IMG/VR virus record: IMGVR_UViG_2740892444_000003
Location: 1 to 45,219 of that record
Length of the DNA: 45,219 nucleotides
Origin: a virus
Taxonomy: Duplodnaviria; Heunggongvirae; Uroviricota; Caudoviricetes
Strand: one strand, 5' to 3'
Part shown: piece by piece, positions 2,915 to 17,450 of the stretch
How the letters are laid out: each line of letters starts with the position of its first letter
Numbering within the stretch: the stretch's first letter is position 1
Program-made: the position numbers and the translations under genes
Notes under the pieces: model-generated
The model's database searches: none
What the model was told of the DNA's origin: nothing
Seen by the model: the letters and a program-made list of their open reading frames with translations, nothing else

Positions 2915-3840
2915 AAATTTCTTTAGTCGTTCCGGTCTTTAACGAAGAGGCCACGATACCTATTTTTTATAAAGCCGTGCGCGAATTTGAAGGGCTTCAG
3001 CAGCATGAAGTCGAGATAGTCTTCATAAACGATGGCAGCAAAGACGCTACAGAATCAATTATCAACGAGCTTGCTGTTGCCGACCCGCTTGTGGTTTCGC
3101 TGTCGTTCACACGTAACTTCGGCAAAGAACCTGCCCTGTTCGCAGGTCTGGACCATGCTACCGGGGAGGCAATTATCCCGATTGACGTTGATCTGCAAGA
3201 CCCTATCGAAGTTATTCCTCACTTGATAGAGAAATGGCAGGCCGGTGCAGATATGGTTCTGGCTAAACGCTCTGACCGCTCCACTGACAGCAGGCTGAAG
3301 CGTAAATCTGCTGAGTGGTTCTATAAACTTCATAACAAAATCAGCAACCCTCAGATAGAAGAGAATGTTGGCGACTTCCGGCTCATGTCTCGCGAAGTAG
3401 TAGAAAACATTAAGCTCATGCCAGAACGAAACCTGTTTATGAAGGGGATACTATCCTGGGTAGGTGGTAAGACAGATGTGGTTGAATACGTAAGAGCCGA
3501 AAGAGCCGCAGGAAAAAGTAAGTTTAATGGCTGGAAGCTTTGGAATCTGGCGCTTGAAGGGATAACGAGTTTTTCTACCTTCCCGCTGAGAATGTGGACG
3601 TATATCGGTCTCTTCGTAGCCGGTTGCTCATTTTTTTATGGGGCATACATGATTGTGGATACCCTTTGTTTTGGCAATCCGGTGAAGGGATATACATCGA
3701 TAATGGTATCGATGCTATTCCTTGGCGGCGTTCAGCTGATAGGTATTGGAGTGCTCGGCGAATACATTGGCCGCATTTACATCGAAACAAAGAACAGACC
3801 AAGATACATTACGAAAAGGGATAATGTTGAACATGAGTGA
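2911..3840 (+). CDS. gtrB: GtrB bactoprenol glucosyltransferase (GT2 family, 309 aa)
   Basis: N-terminal GT2 fold (VPVFNEE...DGSKD...DxD region) with C-terminal membrane helices; follows gtrA. Confidence 0.85.
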
Positions 3841-12645: not shown

Positions 12646-13232
12646 TATCCGCCTCCCAGTAATGACGCCACGTTACCCGTGATGCTTTTCAGCAGTGAAG
12701 TATCTGGAGGCTTTGTGGTTTTGTTGCCGCTATTCTGTACCGCCGACGTGCTGGCCCCTTCCTTCATGTTGGTTTTATCCGCGACGGTAATCTGCTGTGT
12801 CCGGGAGATAATGACCTCCCTCAGGGTGAGGACGGCGGACAGGACGTTTTCGGTTGTCTTGTCCGTCGTCACTTCCAGCGCCCGGATCAACATGTTGCTG
12901 TACAGCCGTTTACCGGTTACCACATCGAAGGGGATACGGCTTTCCTGCAGATCCAGTAGCTCCTGATACGTCTGCTGAGGACTCAGGCCGAGCAGGCTGG
13001 TAGCCGTCAGATTACTGGCAAAATCCAGCAATGCGCCGCCACCGGCGAAACCAACCTCCATCACCACTTCTGACGGTTTTTTATAGGCATGATCAGCGAC
13101 AGCGGCCCCAACCTCTACCGGATGCTCTGTTATTTCAAGCATATCTGTATGCTTCTCTGAAATAACAACACTGGGAACAATCATTCCTATTTTTCTGCTC
13201 TGCTGATGAAAAAGTGTAGAGAGAATATCCAC
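12645..13232 (-). CDS. Tail protein (gpU-like)
   Basis: 195-aa ORF immediately after the tape measure gene; apparent GTG start. Confidence 0.4.
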   Translation of the reverse strand: MDILSTLFHQQSRKIGMIVPSVVISEKHTDMLEITEHPVEVGAAVADHAYKKPSEVVMEVGFAGGGALLDFASNLTATSLLGLSPQQTYQELLDLQESRIPFDVVTGKRLYSNMLIRALEVTTDKTTENVLSAVLTLREVIISRTQQITVADKTNMKEGASTSAVQNSGNKTTKPPDTSLLKSITGNVASLLGGG

Positions 13233-15220
13233 TAACCCACCCTCACCTGATTACTTCGCATGACCTGAGCATTTGCAGACTGTTGCCGACGTGCAACCTC
13301 ATTACCGACAGCGTGCGGATCTCCGCCACCGTAAATGTGGTAAGTATTTTGCTGGTTAACCTCTGTCATTTTGCCACTAATTCCCGCCACGGCAGCCTTA
13401 TTAATCAGCTCTCGAGAATAGATATTTCTTCCATTTTCATGCTGGATAATGCTGCTCATCAATGCTGACATGGTTTGCGGATCGCTCATATTCAGGGCAG
13501 CCCGGGGATCCACTCCCAGTCGTTGCGATACAGCCCTGATATACGCAGTTGTGTTGTTATTATCAGACGCAGGTGCCCAGGTAGAGATAATTTTCTCCAC
13601 GCTGTTTATTCCCCGTCCGGCGTACAACATTAACTGACGAGCAAGAGCCCGTAATCCATCAAAAGCAGTTTCAAATCTGGCAAATCGCCCGCCCGGGCGT
13701 TCAAGAGAAGCCCCTGCCTGACCAGCAAAATTAAGGTTTCCCGGATTGTTATTCCGTTCTCCTCGTTTCGTAGCCTGTGCATATTGTTCCGGCTCATCAT
13801 CACCAAACCAGCCGCGTACCGTCCGGCCCACACTGCGGGGATCGAATCCCCAGTGCTCTTTAATCCAGTCGGCAGTACTGTTAGCGCTGTCTGTAACCAT
13901 CGGCATCGCTGACGGATTTTCGCTGCCCTGATTAAGTATCTGTTTGCCGATGCTGACGGCATCAGCCCAGCGGCCATCTTTGATAGCGTTGAGCAGGTCG
14001 GCGATCATGTTCAGCATTTTGCTGAATTCGCCCATCTGGTCGATGAAGTTGCTGAAATCCCACTTCAGGGACCATGATTTGGGGTCAATATTGAGCAGTT
14101 TCGCCAGCGCTTTCGCCAGTTCATTAACAGACCCTTTCAGGTCACGAACCATCTTCAGCGCGGCATCGACCTCCGGCTTCCACTTGCCCCAGTCAATCAG
14201 GCTGTCGCCGCCTTCCTTCCAGGTCTGATAGTCCTCCCACAGAAGGGCAATCCCCGCCGCCAGCGCGGTAATGAGGCCAATCGGCGACATCCAGAACGTA
14301 CTGTTCAGAATGCGCAGCGCAATCGTCAGCGCGCCAAACAGCGAGATGAGCTCCCGCGTTTGCTTATCCAGCGATTGCCACCAGGTGATGAGGCCTGATG
14401 TTCCTTCAATCAGTCTGAAGAACAGCCGCCCGATAATATCCCCGAGCGCCAGAATGCCTTTTATGGCTTTCGTCAGGGTCTGCTCGATACGCGGGAGGTT
14501 GTCCAGGATATGGCGGCGCAGAGTGTCCAGCGAACCCGCAAGCCCACCCGCAAGATTAGAGCCGATTTTGTCACGGGCCATGCCTGCCATCGCGCCAAAC
14601 TCACGCAGGGAGGTCATAAATTTGTTGGAGCTTCTGGCCGCCTCGTCAGCATTGAAGCCGATAGCTTTCGCCATTGCGCTGTACTGCCCGGAGAAATCAC
14701 CCACACCCCGGCGCATCGCCATGAGGGTATTTTCGTCAATGCCCAGCATCTGCGCATACTGGTTAGCCCGGTAATACGGCATGCTGCTGAGCTTCTGTCC
14801 GACACCCGTAAAGATAGCGGCCATGTCACGCATGTTACCGCTGGCATCACGGGTCTGTACGCCCAGGCGATTCAGAAAGCCTTCTGCACCGGGATTGTTG
14901 CGAATAAACCGGGAGAGGCTTTCCAGAGAAGAGCGCGCAGCGTCCACGCTGCCGCCAACCTGCGAAACCGCATAGCCAATAGACTGAATCCCCTGAACCG
15001 TCGCGCCGGTGCGCTGTGACGCCCAGTAGAGATTATCCAGACCGGAGGCGATCTTAGCCGTGAAGGCCACCACGGACAGCGCAGCTCCTTCAACAGCCAG
15101 CCCCATTTTGATGACATTTGCAGTTGTACCGGCGAGGACAGAACCGAACTTTTTCGCTCCTGCATCATCCACACTGAAGCCAAGCGAGACGAGGAAATCT
15201 TTAATAGTTTCAGCGTTCAT
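13232..15220 (-). CDS. Tail tape measure protein
   Basis: Long ORF rich in Ala/Gly/Leu helical segments located after the chaperone gene; track start is TTG at 15241, ATG with GGAGAGAGG RBS at 15220. Confidence 0.75.
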   Translation of the reverse strand: MNAETIKDFLVSLGFSVDDAGAKKFGSVLAGTTANVIKMGLAVEGAALSVVAFTAKIASGLDNLYWASQRTGATVQGIQSIGYAVSQVGGSVDAARSSLESLSRFIRNNPGAEGFLNRLGVQTRDASGNMRDMAAIFTGVGQKLSSMPYYRANQYAQMLGIDENTLMAMRRGVGDFSGQYSAMAKAIGFNADEAARSSNKFMTSLREFGAMAGMARDKIGSNLAGGLAGSLDTLRRHILDNLPRIEQTLTKAIKGILALGDIIGRLFFRLIEGTSGLITWWQSLDKQTRELISLFGALTIALRILNSTFWMSPIGLITALAAGIALLWEDYQTWKEGGDSLIDWGKWKPEVDAALKMVRDLKGSVNELAKALAKLLNIDPKSWSLKWDFSNFIDQMGEFSKMLNMIADLLNAIKDGRWADAVSIGKQILNQGSENPSAMPMVTDSANSTADWIKEHWGFDPRSVGRTVRGWFGDDEPEQYAQATKRGERNNNPGNLNFAGQAGASLERPGGRFARFETAFDGLRALARQLMLYAGRGINSVEKIISTWAPASDNNNTTAYIRAVSQRLGVDPRAALNMSDPQTMSALMSSIIQHENGRNIYSRELINKAAVAGISGKMTEVNQQNTYHIYGGGDPHAVGNEVARRQQSANAQVMRSNQVRVG

Positions 15221-15397
15221 TATCCTCTCTCCATTTCTCAATGCGCCGCTGGTTATCCGCTTTTACCGCCAGATGGTCATTCAAGAGAGCAATGTCGTAC
15301 AAATCGACAGAGCCATCTTTAAGTGCTGTATAAGGAATTAACCCGGCGTCAACCGGATTGAGAAGGTAAGACAGCCCGTCCGGCAGGCTGTTAAACG

Positions 15398-15850
15398 TCA
15401 GCCCTGTTGCAGGCTCTGCGTCGTGCTGGTAAGGGGTGTAGGCAAAAAATTTCCCAGCGAATCGGCGACCACCCGCGCCACCAGATGCAGCATGACCAGC
15501 AAGTCAATATCATCAAACATCAGTTCGCCCTGGGTAAATACCGGAACCCATCCGTCCATATGACGCCGCGATACCACCGCAAGACAGGGATGAATAATCG
15601 CACTGGTGTCATCTTCGGTCAGGGAAGACAGTTCCTCAGCGATACGCGGGAGCATGGTTTCAAACACCGGTTTTAACTGCTCGAATTTCACGGTGTCGAT
15701 TTTGCCATCAGCAGGCAAACGGGAGCGAATGCTCCCGAAATCTGACATCATTCCTGCCAGCACCGGCAGAAGTTTGCGGGTCACTTTCAGCTGATCAAAA
15801 ACGCTGAGTTTTGCCGCGCGATATTTCACGCCTTTGATTTCGAATTCCAT
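15398..15850 (-). CDS. Tail assembly chaperone (probable -1 frameshift partner, extension to about 15215)
   Basis: 150-aa ORF between tail tube and tape measure; slippery T_TTT_TTG near its 3' end and an open -1 frame running to the tape measure start. Confidence 0.6.
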   Translation of the reverse strand: MEFEIKGVKYRAAKLSVFDQLKVTRKLLPVLAGMMSDFGSIRSRLPADGKIDTVKFEQLKPVFETMLPRIAEELSSLTEDDTSAIIHPCLAVVSRRHMDGWVPVFTQGELMFDDIDLLVMLHLVARVVADSLGNFLPTPLTSTTQSLQQG

Positions 15851-15853
15851 GTA

Positions 15854-16294
15854 TTAAAACTCCCCGAGAACCTGGTCAATCTTGCCGCAGTCAAACACCC
15901 ACGGCATCGTATTACCGGTTTTAGCGTTGGCATTATCCGGTTGTTTCTGGAACGCAACACTACGTGCCGTGATGATGTCGCCGCTGACCTTGTTTCGGAT
16001 CACAATAACGTTATTCCCCCATGTGGCAGAAGACTGGCTCTGTGCGTTATACGCCAGCGACAATTTTTTATTTGTCGGTGATGTCTTCAGAAGGTTAACG
16101 GTAATCGTCCCGCTTTTATCTGCATGGAGACTGTGCATCACTTCGCCATCAGCACCGATGGTCATGGTGTTTTTAGGACCGCCCATCGCAACCACAATCC
16201 CCTCTTCAGAACTTGCAGAACCGTACCCGAGGTCAATCGAACCGGTCGGGCCGGTCAGCGTCGCAGTGACATCCATAAAAGAATAGGTAGACAT
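15854..16294 (-). CDS. Tail tube protein
   Basis: 146-aa ORF immediately downstream of the sheath gene; conserved sheath-tube-chaperone-tape measure order. Confidence 0.6.
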   Translation of the reverse strand: MSTYSFMDVTATLTGPTGSIDLGYGSASSEEGIVVAMGGPKNTMTIGADGEVMHSLHADKSGTITVNLLKTSPTNKKLSLAYNAQSQSSATWGNNVIVIRNKVSGDIITARSVAFQKQPDNANAKTGNTMPWVFDCGKIDQVLGEF

Positions 16295-16304
16295 TCACTT
16301 CCCC

Positions 16305-17450
16305 TTAGCGAACAACGTTAATCTGTACGTCAGCGTAATGAACCGCGCCTGCAAGTTTTATTGCAGCCTGAATCACCGGAGCCTTACGGGCTTCACGTTC
16401 TGATTGTGCCTGTTCATCCAGCGGCTGGGCGTATACGTAATAACCTTTGGGCAGCGTGTCACCTGATGACAACTGACCAAGGTCGCCACCGTTCCATACG
16501 CCCGGAGCAATCAGTCCATTCTGAACGGCCTGATCCAGTGATTTTTCAACATTTGATAACAGTCGGGTAATACCGGCTTCAGTCTGGGGAACTTTCGTGG
16601 TGCTGGTATAAAGCAGGTTATAGAGGTTGGTCTGCACATAATTCTGTAACCAGTCCAGGCCGTGGCGTTCATCAAAGAAATCGCCGTTAGCCATCACTCC
16701 CTGCTGGAGGATAGCTGTATCATTCTGGTAGTACACGAACACATTGCAGTTTTTTGCATCAAGTGCCGATGCCTGGCTGACTGTCAGTGTTTCATACCCG
16801 ACACCAGGCTCCTGCTTAAACTTGAGCGTAATCGCGGTATTACTGCCATTGAAATTAACCGTGAATGCCCGGCCAAATGCAGATAACGCAGCGTATTTAT
16901 TACCAGATGAATACTGAATAAAACTGCGTGAATATCCGGCGGTTTTCAGTTTTGATGCCAAATCATCGCTGGATGCAGTCTGCAGGCATTTTTCATCGCT
17001 TGTCGTAATCGCCAGAATACGGCTTACAGAAGAGGATTCGATCGCCGCAGCCACTTTCAGCCAGTCTGCATCCGGAATATCTGCATCGTCTGCAATCCCC
17101 AGCCCATACCATGAAGTATAATCGAGCATGGCATTCACAGCCTGCTCCAGCGTCTCAGGCGTGGCCTGTTCGCTGTCTCCCTTCGTTTTCACCCAACGAC
17201 CAACAAAAACCTCCTGAGGTTTCGGTGATTGTGAGAAAAACACCTGCGCAGCCTTATATTCTGGTGATTCCACGCCAAAATCTTTTCCAATATCTTCCGC
17301 GGCAGAATAACGACGAATGCGCTCACTTACCGGAATGATTGTGGACGGGCCGAGAATGAGTAATGCACCAAAATTTCGCCCTGATGCTGCACGCGGCGAC
17401 ATGATCACATCAACATTAACAACGTTTGATACAGGCAAGCCCTGTGCCAT
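16305..17450 (-). CDS. Contractile tail sheath protein
   Basis: 381-aa ORF preceding the tube gene; size and position typical of myovirus sheath. Confidence 0.6.

Follow-up and report, generated by a model that had tools for sequence, protein, structure and literature searches.

Does this phage's tail assembly chaperone gene encode one protein or two? In the window (the whole 45,219-nt stretch of DNA analysed here), the -1 frame of the chaperone ORF stays open beyond its stop and into the start of the tape measure gene, so that a ribosome slipping back by one nucleotide near the end of the ORF would make a longer product. What we observe is a slippery site that is in phase and exceptionally conserved, a -1 frame with coding status behind it, an extension that has no start codon of its own in the window, and homologues in which both parts lie in a single frame. 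We consider it probable, at roughly 85% and on the strength of comparative sequence analysis, that a programmed -1 ribosomal frameshift at T_TTT_TTG yields a chaperone–DUF6889 fusion of the G/GT type.

A chaperone gene between tube and tape measure

All features of the locus lie on the minus strand (Table 1). The chaperone ORF belongs to Pfam family PF21822 (Phage_TAC_15, E 1.4e-29) and to phrog_1688, a tail assembly chaperone family (E 1.7e-64). The AF2 model of its N-domain matches tail assembly chaperones in BFVD (Foldseek, E 5e-8); the Foldseek search of the PDB gave no meaningful match to any solved structure, and no NCBIfam model matched. The tail tube protein encoded directly upstream, named a DUF3277 family protein by PGAP, is of the KPP10_Orf10 family in a Pfam search. 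The tape measure gene carries the PGAP name 'lytic transglycosylase', with the same start, and the C-terminal part of its product is lytic transglycosylase-like, with matches to transglycosylase and endolysin PHROGs at residues ~442–649. The chaperone thus sits between tube and tape measure, as in G/GT-type modules, and the architecture claimed for it in the earlier note is borne out by the chaperone families, the gene order and the homologous DUF6889 extension.

Table 1. Features of the chaperone locus and its neighbours, in window coordinates
Feature	Position	Strand	Remarks
Tail sheath gene	16305..17450	-	381 aa; PF11863 DUF3383, E 5e-101; phrog_205, E 1e-135
Tail tube gene	15854..16294	-	directly upstream of chaperone; 146 aa; PF11681, E 8.8e-61
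Tail assembly chaperone ORF, zero frame	15398..15850	-	ATG 15850 to TGA 15400..15398; 150 aa, 16.7 kDa
Overlapping in-phase heptamers G_GGA_AAT and A_AAT_TTT	15449..15455	-	G_GGA_AAT 15455..15449; A_AAT_TTT 15452..15446; ~52/65 loci
Slippery heptamer T_TTT_TTG	15443..15449	-	P-site TTT, codon 135; A-site TTG, codon 136; proposed -1 shift site
-1 frame extension	15210..15443	-	77 codons + TGA 15212..15210; C-terminal part of predicted fusion
DUF6889 domain, presumed T-like	15219..15335	-	fusion residues 173–211; PF21829, E 8.9e-20 (fusion), 1.2e-20 (alone)
Tape measure protein gene	13232..15220	-	662 aa from ATG 15220; phrog_2276, E 2.6e-282

The slippery site and the frame behind it

The zero frame reads ...CTG GGA AAT TTT TTG CCT..., which places T_TTT_TTG in the correct X_XXY_YYZ phase, its first T being the third base of codon 134. 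The earlier note had already pointed to this heptamer in the chaperone ORF, and its presence and phase hold up; its position was given as 15433..15439, 10 nt away from where it lies. Its nearness to the chaperone stop is also as described, although the distance is 14 sense codons after the A-site TTG, not some 20.

Related loci, gathered by a profile search built from a 10-sequence alignment, carry T_TTT_TT followed by G, T or C at the same place in 65 of 65 cases, 12–18 codons before the stop and over a range of 34–100% protein identity. When the 64 distinct coding sequences were put to a synonymous-constraint test, third-position entropy was zero in just two of the 135 degenerate columns, those of codons 134 and 135. 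At codon 134 the last base is T in all 64, with the amino acid varying among N, S, G and D; codon 135 is TTT in all 64, with other Phe columns split about 50:50; and codon 136 is TTG, TTT or TTC, never CTN. Every Leu codon at the heptamer is TTG (58/58), compared with 11% elsewhere in these genes, where TTT stands at 47% and AAT at 42%. The homopolymer is T6 in 59 of the 65 loci and T7 in the other 6 (5 of the 64 distinct coding sequences plus locus L056), and T6 is followed by G in 58 of the 64.

Neither element is striking within the window. TTTTTTG occurs there 17 times against 14.3 expected, which is not above chance, and at this background frequency the mere presence of the heptamer is no proof. 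Open -1 frames beyond stops are frequent in so compact a genome, since the gene that follows often sits in the -1 frame, and for the same reason a within-window null for the open frame is uninformative. Since heptamer and open frame are each unremarkable, the significance of the arrangement has to come from comparative and homology evidence.

That evidence extends well beyond the heptamer. The -1 frame is open from ~15503 to its TGA, 97 codons in total, with 18 codons open upstream of the site and 77 after the slip, and it overlaps the tape measure start by 11 nt (tape measure ATG at 15220..15218), in agreement with the earlier note. The predicted fusion has 213 aa and 23.9 kDa (...SLGNFL/AYTPYQ...EDNER). 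Its C-terminal part matches PF21829 with 73.4 bits against a cut-off of 23.9, over profile positions 2–40 of 40, and phrog_4364 with E 1.8e-23; in the AF2 model of the fusion, residues 160–212 form a helical C-domain (pLDDT ~88–92) that follows a disordered linker at 137–159. Downstream of the heptamer, the three codon positions of the -1 frame have entropies of 0.77/0.61/1.40, and one and the same stretch of nucleotides gives an amino-acid identity of 0.60 when read in the -1 frame and of 0.36 when read in the zero frame. This is the signature of purifying selection on the -1 frame, including the stretch where the zero and -1 frames overlap.

Stops in the -1 frame of related phages, named in the earlier note as grounds for rejecting the frameshift, are rare: the -1 ORF is intact in 63 of 65 diverse loci and in 77 of 80 close IMG/VR loci. 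Among the close loci, two exceptions are cut by a contig end (L095 and L132), and in the third (L134) the chaperone ORF is broken early and the extension is intact. The extension is interrupted or out of register in L037 and L056 of the 65, and in E. coli IAI1. Such broken copies are to be expected in decaying prophages, and they show that persistence in a genome does not require the arrangement.

Distant relatives help to locate the shift. In six representatives at 29–34% identity a single ORF spans both chaperone and DUF6889, and they align without gaps over the junction (SLGNFL/AYTPY versus SLARFLAYEP, HGYFSYTP and ARFFTYAP), which pins the shift to codons 135–137. An HMM made from distant single-frame fusions only matched the -1 frame in 64 of the 65 loci (median E 1e-20) and the zero frame in none. 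Three distant, GC-rich loci (L006–L008) offer the same pair of product types, one a PF21822 chaperone that is short and the other a chaperone-like protein of ~200 aa with a DUF6889 C-terminus, but do so from two adjacent genes with separate ORFs and without frameshift; no close paralogy links the two N-domains (BLASTP E 0.31), and the gene neighbourhood of these loci is rearranged.

The earlier note had also proposed a search for a stimulatory structure downstream of the site, and none was found by folding, RNAalifold or Rfam. The 113 nt and 60 nt after the heptamer fold with z scores of -1.4 and -0.4, RNAalifold on 45 diverse sequences gave a consensus of -0.05 kcal/mol in which 2 pairs (columns 76–83) are invariant, and Rfam returned no match. 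No conserved stable structure is present 5–9 nt downstream of the heptamer, which sets the site apart from the dnaX- and IS-type class. A hairpin seen in close relatives, CAGCCUGCC...GGGCUG, was rejected as a stimulator: it starts ~60 nt downstream and is not conserved. On the upstream side, a candidate stimulator, the Shine–Dalgarno-like GGGUGG, coincides with a conserved Arg-Val-Val motif.

Immediately upstream of the universal heptamer lie two further in-phase heptamers (Table 1), of which G_GGA_AAT is absent in ~13 of the 65 loci. The rare Gly codon GGA occupies codon 133 in 56 of 64 coding sequences (88%), whereas in the rest of these genes it makes up 10% of the Gly codons. From this pattern, G_GGA_AAT and A_AAT_TTT may be auxiliary slip sites or context. 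A more ambitious version, which we think unlikely, is that the locus holds a structure-free multi-site frameshift cassette: the 13-nt G_GGA_AAT_TTT_TTG would offer three in-phase heptamers and a selected rare GGA, assisted by a GGUGG-like Shine–Dalgarno mimic 13 nt upstream of G_GGA_AAT, and would set an unusually high or tunable ratio of short to long product, in a family that would also interconvert frameshift and two-gene solutions to a single stoichiometry problem (L006–L008).

Proposed mechanism and rival explanations

In the mechanism we favour, most ribosomes would stay in the zero frame until the stop at 15400..15398 and so produce the 150-aa chaperone. A minority would slip one nucleotide back while tRNA-Phe occupies the P-site TTT and tRNA-Leu the A-site TTG, continue with GCC TAC ACC... 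and read 77 codons to the TGA at 15212..15210, giving 213 aa. The fusion would consist of a chaperone domain (1–136), a flexible linker (~137–159) and a helical DUF6889 domain (~160–212). We infer that the slip is ribosomal, and we likewise infer its efficiency and the binding partners of the products. By analogy with lambda and P2, the N-domain common to both products would cover the tape measure protein, whose gene comes just downstream, and the rarer C-terminal domain would bring in the tail tube protein; a fixed slip frequency would set the ratio of short to long form, and both products would be absent from the virion.

The same observations can be read in other ways. If there were no recoding, only the 150-aa chaperone would be functional, and the heptamer and the open -1 frame would be a relic or a coincidence, as the chance-level count of the heptamer, the commonness of open -1 frames and the interrupted copies (IAI1, L056 and L037) might suggest. 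Motif and frame are, however, kept over 34–100% identity, the periodicity of the -1 frame speaks for purifying selection, the extension matches a Pfam domain with E 1e-20, and single-frame homologues exist; the comparative data have effectively refuted this reading, which we regard as the least probable of all. DUF6889 could instead be an independent gene of ~54 aa with its own start between chaperone and tape measure. PGAP and many GenBank records do show a separate CDS of 50–63 aa, PHROGs has a 54-aa family (phrog_4364), and in roughly half of the relatives an in-frame ATG lies 27 codons into the extension, where initiation of its own would be possible; the missing start codon is a lineage-dependent feature. 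In the window, by contrast, the first ATG, GTG or TTG of the extension is codon 53 of 77, inside the DUF6889 domain, and the start chosen by PGAP is a CTG (15374) that no spacer separates from the nearest G-rich stretch before it. Coding constraint on the -1 frame and conservation of its amino acids begin at the heptamer, 25 codons upstream of that start, the distant homologues are single-frame fusions collinear over the junction, and an independent gene would leave the invariant heptamer and the wobble constraint unexplained, all of which makes it highly improbable.

Transcriptional slippage would reach the same fusion by another route: RNA polymerase would add a U on the T6 run, part of the mRNAs would become single-frame, and the product would read ...GNFFAYTPY.... 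The conserved element is indeed a homopolymer, with T7 in 6 of 65 loci, T7 DNA (P0001/L154) gives exactly the in-frame 213-aa fusion, and the sequence data are compatible with both ribosomal and transcriptional slip. Bacterial RNA polymerase slippage usually needs 8–9 or more U/A, and six are short for productive slip. The long homopolymer of conserved length that marks this class is not what the loci have (T6 in 59 and T7 in 6 of 65), and the exact T6 followed by G in 58 of 64 coding sequences shows no drift to longer runs; the phase part of the comparison is uninformative because phase is tied to the conserved protein. The conserved rare GGA and the in-phase G_GGA_AAT fit a ribosomal rather than a polymerase context, and the TTTTTTG of P2 is described as a -1 translational site (PMC3091744; P2 GenBank record). 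We judge transcriptional slippage improbable. The junction peptide would discriminate: ribosomal slip at T_TTT_TTG predicts ...SLGNFLAYTPYQHDAE, whereas ...SLGNFFAYTPYQHDAE would point either to one of the upstream heptamers as slip site or to transcriptional slippage, and the Leu-bearing junction GNFLAY should be possible only via ribosomal slip at T_TTT_TTG.

Known systems, annotation and meaning

The proposed ribosomal frameshift finds its nearest parallel in gpE and gpE+E' of P2 (described here after PMC3091744, PMC5009743 and its GenBank record), likewise a contractile-tailed temperate E. coli phage with the gene order sheath, tube, chaperone and tape measure. P2 frameshifts at the same TTTTTTG without a downstream structure (PMC3091744), its GenBank record notes the heptamer as a -1 translational frameshift site, and in both phages the end of the -1 extension overlaps the tape measure ATG and a hairpin is lacking. 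The products differ in size (91/142 aa in P2 versus 150/213 aa here), as does the distance from slip to stop (6 codons versus 14). Comparison of 61 fusions with P2 E+E' by hhalign gave a probability of 0.8%, and of the extension with E' 0.4%; Pfam Phage_E and P2_GpE were not found (fusion E up to 0.01, extension E up to 10), and only PF21822 and PF21829 matched. With hhalign probabilities below 1%, the resemblance to P2 E and E+E' is therefore one of analogy only.

The lambda gpG/gpGT pair offers a second comparison, sharing a common N-terminus, a low-frequency -1 slip at X_XXY_YYZ and a gene placed between the major tail and tape measure genes; in the lambda model, G serves to bind the tape measure protein and T to recruit the tube protein, with a critical ratio between the two products (PMC5009743). 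Most relatives here even have a lambda-like G_GGA_AAT just upstream of T_TTT_TTN. Lambda, however, is a siphovirus with its slip at G_GGA_AAG, no sequence homology links the two systems, and the universal site here is T_TTT_TTN. A conserved -1 frameshift has also been proposed for the chaperone genes of Pakpunavirus/Vandenendeviridae and Andersonviridae in the phage Adele paper (PMC12846349), where the next ORF downstream, labelled 'hypothetical protein', in fact encodes the C-terminal portion of a long chaperone isoform; the KPP10_Orf10 family of the tube protein here is typical of that group. Those phages are lytic Pseudomonas and Acinetobacter myoviruses with a shorter motif (PMC12846349), and the likeness to the present locus lies in this situation and in the tube family.

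True homologues have been annotated in other phages of other hosts. Klebsiella phage Mulock (MN098327.1, CPT_Mulock_014/015; extension 64.5% identity by tblastn), with an in-phase TTTTTTG 16 codons before the stop, and Burkholderia phage Magia (MT701587.1, CPT_Magia_015/016; 42%) each have a joined CDS named 'tape measure chaperone frameshift product', in records that carry no comparative or experimental support. The frameshift goes unmentioned in the Mulock genome announcement, the word 'frameshift' occurs 0 times in the SEN34 paper, and we found no literature on DUF6889 or on the heptamer together with 'tail assembly chaperone'.

The practical value of the finding lies in annotation. PGAP and RefSeq show the region as two genes, the chaperone and a 'DUF6889 family protein' of 54 aa with a CTG start, which older records call 'NTP pyrophosphohydrolase'; the 54-aa DUF6889 CDS is spurious, and the frameshift is missing from the public annotations of this E. 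coli prophage. The prophage locus is present in 315 of 5,426 complete E. coli genomes, plus many prophages of Enterobacterales; E. coli EH08-18-36 has it in identical form. What we describe is a new lineage for the G/GT paradigm, of a known kind, and it leaves the understanding of the mechanism unchanged. The heptamer of P2 would here be reused in an unrelated protein family, and broken copies, such as that of E. coli IAI1, would become recognisable as likely tail-defective. With the frameshift recognised, DUF6889 would have a function, that of the C-terminal, T-like domain in a long chaperone isoform.

The proposed slip site and its conservation

Around codons 132-137 of the tail assembly chaperone ORF the zero frame reads CTG GGA AAT TTT TTG CCT, so its T_TTT_TTG heptamer has the X_XXY_YYZ phasing that a simultaneous -1 slip requires. 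An earlier note, made from sequence alone, was right about this heptamer and its strand, although not about its position, which is ten bases from the 15433..15439 proposed there (see table). The heptamer's A-site codon is followed by 14 sense codons before the chaperone stop. Beginning at about 15503, the -1 frame has no stop until a TGA at 15212..15210, which overlaps the tape measure ATG (15220) by 11 nt, bearing out the note's claim of an open frame across to that start. Taken singly, neither the heptamer nor the open frame is remarkable: the window contains 17 copies of TTTTTTG where 14.3 would be expected, and open -1 frames past stop codons are common there because adjacent genes often use the -1 frame.

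A prophage of E. coli EH08-18-36 matches the locus at 100% identity. The locus is found in 315 of 5,426 complete E. coli genomes and shares 98% identity with four vB_EcoM phages, 84% with Yersinia phage YP3 and 79% with Salmonella phage SEN34 (Brunovirus). In its tape measure gene, C-terminal residues about 442-649 match endolysin and tail-injection transglycosylase PHROGs, and PGAP names the entire gene 'lytic transglycosylase'.

Features of the chaperone locus (window coordinates unless a related locus is named)
Feature	Position	Strand	Details
Tail sheath	17450..16305	-	PF11863; phrog_205
Tail tube	16294..15854	-	PF11681
Chaperone ORF	ATG 15850 to TGA 15400..15398	-	150 aa; PF21822 Phage_TAC_15 E 1.4e-29; phrog_1688 'tail assembly chaperone' E 1.7e-64
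Three overlapping in-phase slippery heptamers	15455..15443	-	G_GGA_AAT_TTT_TTG, 13 nt
Slippery heptamer T_TTT_TTG	15449..15443	-	in-phase
Tape measure	15220..13232	-	phrog_2276; transglycosylase-like C-terminal part
Dit-like, plug and hub baseplate proteins			after tape measure
Two-gene locus L006	3489..4630		distant GC-rich relative
Two-gene locus L007	577..1718		distant GC-rich relative
Two-gene locus L008	108..1238		distant GC-rich relative

Comparison with relatives argues that selection acts on the heptamer itself. We gathered 63 loci, one genome per species and almost all from Enterobacterales assemblies, at 34-83% chaperone identity; with YP3 and SEN34 added, T_TTT_TT[G/T/C] stands at the homologous place in 65 of 65. 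When 64 distinct chaperone coding sequences were aligned by codon, only codons 134 and 135, among 135 degenerate columns, had zero third-position entropy. Codon 134 ends in T in all 64 despite a variable residue (Asn 57, Ser 4, Gly 2, Asp 1; AAT makes up 42% of Asn codons in the background), Phe135 is TTT in all 64 (47% of Phe codons in the rest of these genes), and codon 136 is TTG in 58, TTT in 5 and TTC in 1, never CTN (TTG is 11% of Leu codons in the background).

Two more in-phase heptamers, G_GGA_AAT and A_AAT_TTT, overlap just upstream. Gly133 is GGA in 56/64 sequences (88%), against 10% of Gly codons elsewhere in these genes, which suggests selection on upstream context or on auxiliary slip sites; G_GGA_AAT occurs in only about 52 of the 65 loci, so T_TTT_TTN is the universal element and the upstream heptamers are auxiliary at most. 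A Shine-Dalgarno-like GGGUGG stretch (about 15474..15468, minus strand; codons 126-128, CGG GTG GTC) precedes G_GGA_AAT by 13 nt and T_TTT_TTG by 19 nt, and Val127 is GTG in 59 of 64 relatives. Its role as a stimulator is speculative, since these codons also encode a conserved Arg-Val-Val motif.

The search for a downstream stimulatory structure, which the earlier note had proposed, came back negative: neither the 113 nt nor the 60 nt following the site is more stable than shuffled sequence (z -1.4 and -0.4 respectively), the RNAalifold consensus of 45 diverse sequences is essentially absent (-0.05 kcal/mol), and Rfam gave no match. Phage P2 slips at TTTTTTG with no downstream hairpin, producing gpE (91 aa) and gpE+E' (142 aa) (PMC3091744; P2 record), so absent structure is no argument against frameshifting. 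A hairpin resembling a terminator, AAUCCGG UUGA CGCCGGGUU with a U-rich stretch after it, sits at 15359..15340 (minus strand) in the NPVDAGLIPY coding region of the extension; it is probably incidental because it lies inside an operon just ahead of the tape measure gene.

The -1 frame as coding sequence

Several lines of sequence evidence indicate that the -1 frame is genuinely coding. Its 77-codon extension is recognised by Pfam DUF6889 (E 1.2e-20; 73 bits against a cut-off of 24) and by phrog_4364. Across the chaperone stop, the -1 ORF runs 77-190 codons in 63 of 65 loci, while the +1 ORF is short and erratic, and a profile built only from distant single-frame chaperone-DUF6889 proteins matches the -1 translation in 64 of 65 (median E 1e-20) and the zero frame never. 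Entropy by -1-frame codon position over the extension (0.77/0.61/1.40) points to purifying selection on the -1 reading, and the first 16 codons, which overlap the zero-frame tail, follow the same pattern (0.91/0.75/1.34). Over the 12 codons past the slip site, the sequences agree more closely when translated in the -1 frame than in the zero frame (mean pairwise amino-acid identity 0.60 versus 0.36).

Close relatives do not bear out the stops in the -1 frame that the earlier note would have taken as contrary evidence: 77 of 80 close IMG/VR relatives are intact, two others (L095, L132) are cut off by the contig end, and the third (L134) breaks early within the chaperone ORF with its T6 run and 77-codon extension intact. 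Among the wider loci, an Arsenophonus MAG (L056) retains TTTTTTT but has a TAG in the -1 frame 9 codons on, and in Enterobacter sp. R1 (L037) DUF6889 is shifted to +1 with respect to the chaperone; both copies look like decaying prophages or assembly errors. E. coli IAI1 (L155, NC_011741.1) has a 1-nt deletion near locus position 873 (window about 15376), GACGGGCTG to GACGGCTG, which falls in the linker part of the extension and moves DUF6889 out of the -1 reading frame. Either the IAI1 copy has probably lost tail function or the base call is in error; PGAP's separate-ORF annotation masks the break. H13, one other of 25 sampled E. coli matches, also aligns 1 nt shorter than the query.

Searching 1.8 billion representatives exhaustively, without a profile, we retrieved six proteins of about 200 aa (29-34% identity) that join a chaperone-like N-half and DUF6889 in one frame. 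They align gap-free across the predicted junction, SLGNFL|AYTPYQ against SLARFLAYEPIE, HGYFSYTPVA and ARFFTYAPVP, placing the frame change between codon 135 and GCC 15443..15441, exactly at the heptamer. In the contigs of these long proteins, at the GC-rich loci L006-L008, a short PF21822 chaperone gene is followed directly by the separate chaperone-like plus DUF6889 protein of about 200 aa. Two genes here correspond to the short and long isoforms, an alternative to frameshifting. The two N-domains are not close paralogues, and the neighbourhood is rearranged, with plug and Dit-like genes upstream and no obvious tape measure adjoining.

Length variants of the T run also occur in public assemblies. 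A T7 variant, confirmed in DNA (L154 1896..1911, Logan SRR23924998), encodes an in-frame 213-aa fusion reading GNFFAY, represented by database protein P0001 (cluster of 16 sequences), and an apparent T5 variant is deduced from P0003 (24 sequences), whose tail is in the +1 frame; these may be homopolymer sequencing errors, real mutants or RNA-derived reads. Two chimeras, P0079 (unrelated PF06163 N-terminus, chaperone C-half) and P0126 (siroheme-synthase-like N-terminus, last 60 residues of the extension), are likely assembly or gene-calling artefacts.

Proposed mechanism and its alternatives

We put at roughly 0.85 the probability that a ribosomal -1 slip at T_TTT_TTG, yielding a fused chaperone-DUF6889 protein, is the complete account. 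The 65/65 heptamers, coding -1 frame and gap-free single-frame homologues support the G/GT-type frameshift first read from the sequence. The predicted products are 150 aa (16.7 kDa) and 213 aa (23.9 kDa). In an AlphaFold2 model of P0001, the in-frame variant at 98% identity (mean pLDDT 80), a confident chaperone domain ends in a helix (117-136) that stops at the slip site, followed by a disordered linker (137-159) and a confident helical C-domain (160-212). A search of BFVD pairs the modelled N-domain with viral tail assembly chaperones (E 5e-8); the PDB gave no structural match. By analogy with lambda gpG/gpGT (PMC5009743), the N-domain would coat the tape measure protein, the rare DUF6889 domain would recruit tube protein, and slip frequency would set the short/long ratio.

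Transcriptional slippage on the T6 run would give a near-identical product, GNFFAY instead of GNFLAY, but the run is short, is kept at T6+G with no lengthening, and has a conserved upstream codon context too; we consider this route improbable. Still less probable is that DUF6889 is an independent small gene, since the window has no canonical start early in the extension, the first ATG, GTG or TTG being codon 53 of 77. About half of the relatives have an ATG at extension codon 27, which explains the small ORF produced by gene callers. That the arrangement has no function is contradicted by the heptamer constraint and the -1-frame coding evidence, and we give it the least credence.

Ribosomal frameshifting of this kind is ordinary and well precedented. 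Lambda G/GT and P2 E/E+E' share its mechanism and architecture, with P2-type efficiency reportedly 2-3 times lambda's (PMC5009743), although homology to P2 E/E+E' is not demonstrable (hhalign probability <1%), so the window chaperone would work like P2's but outside its protein family. Homologous chaperones occur in Klebsiella phage Mulock and Burkholderia phage Magia, and Mulock has its own in-phase TTTTTTG 16 codons before the stop. A 2025 study made the same argument for overlooked poly-T -1 frameshifts in Pakpunavirus and Andersonviridae chaperones (PMC12846349).

Annotation of DUF6889

The Mulock and Magia GenBank records already hold a joined 'tape measure chaperone frameshift product' CDS; the Mulock genome announcement does not discuss the frameshift, and we found no mention of DUF6889 in the literature searched. 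PGAP/RefSeq annotates the distal extension, 15374..15210 on the minus strand (3577..3741 of related locus L003), as a separate 54-aa 'DUF6889 family protein' starting at a CTG (15374..15372). In older GenBank records the fragment is named 'NTP pyrophosphohydrolase', apparently a misnomer passed from record to record, and the YP3 and SEN34 records leave a 178-nt gap in its place. The value of the finding lies in correcting this annotation and in the role it would give to DUF6889.
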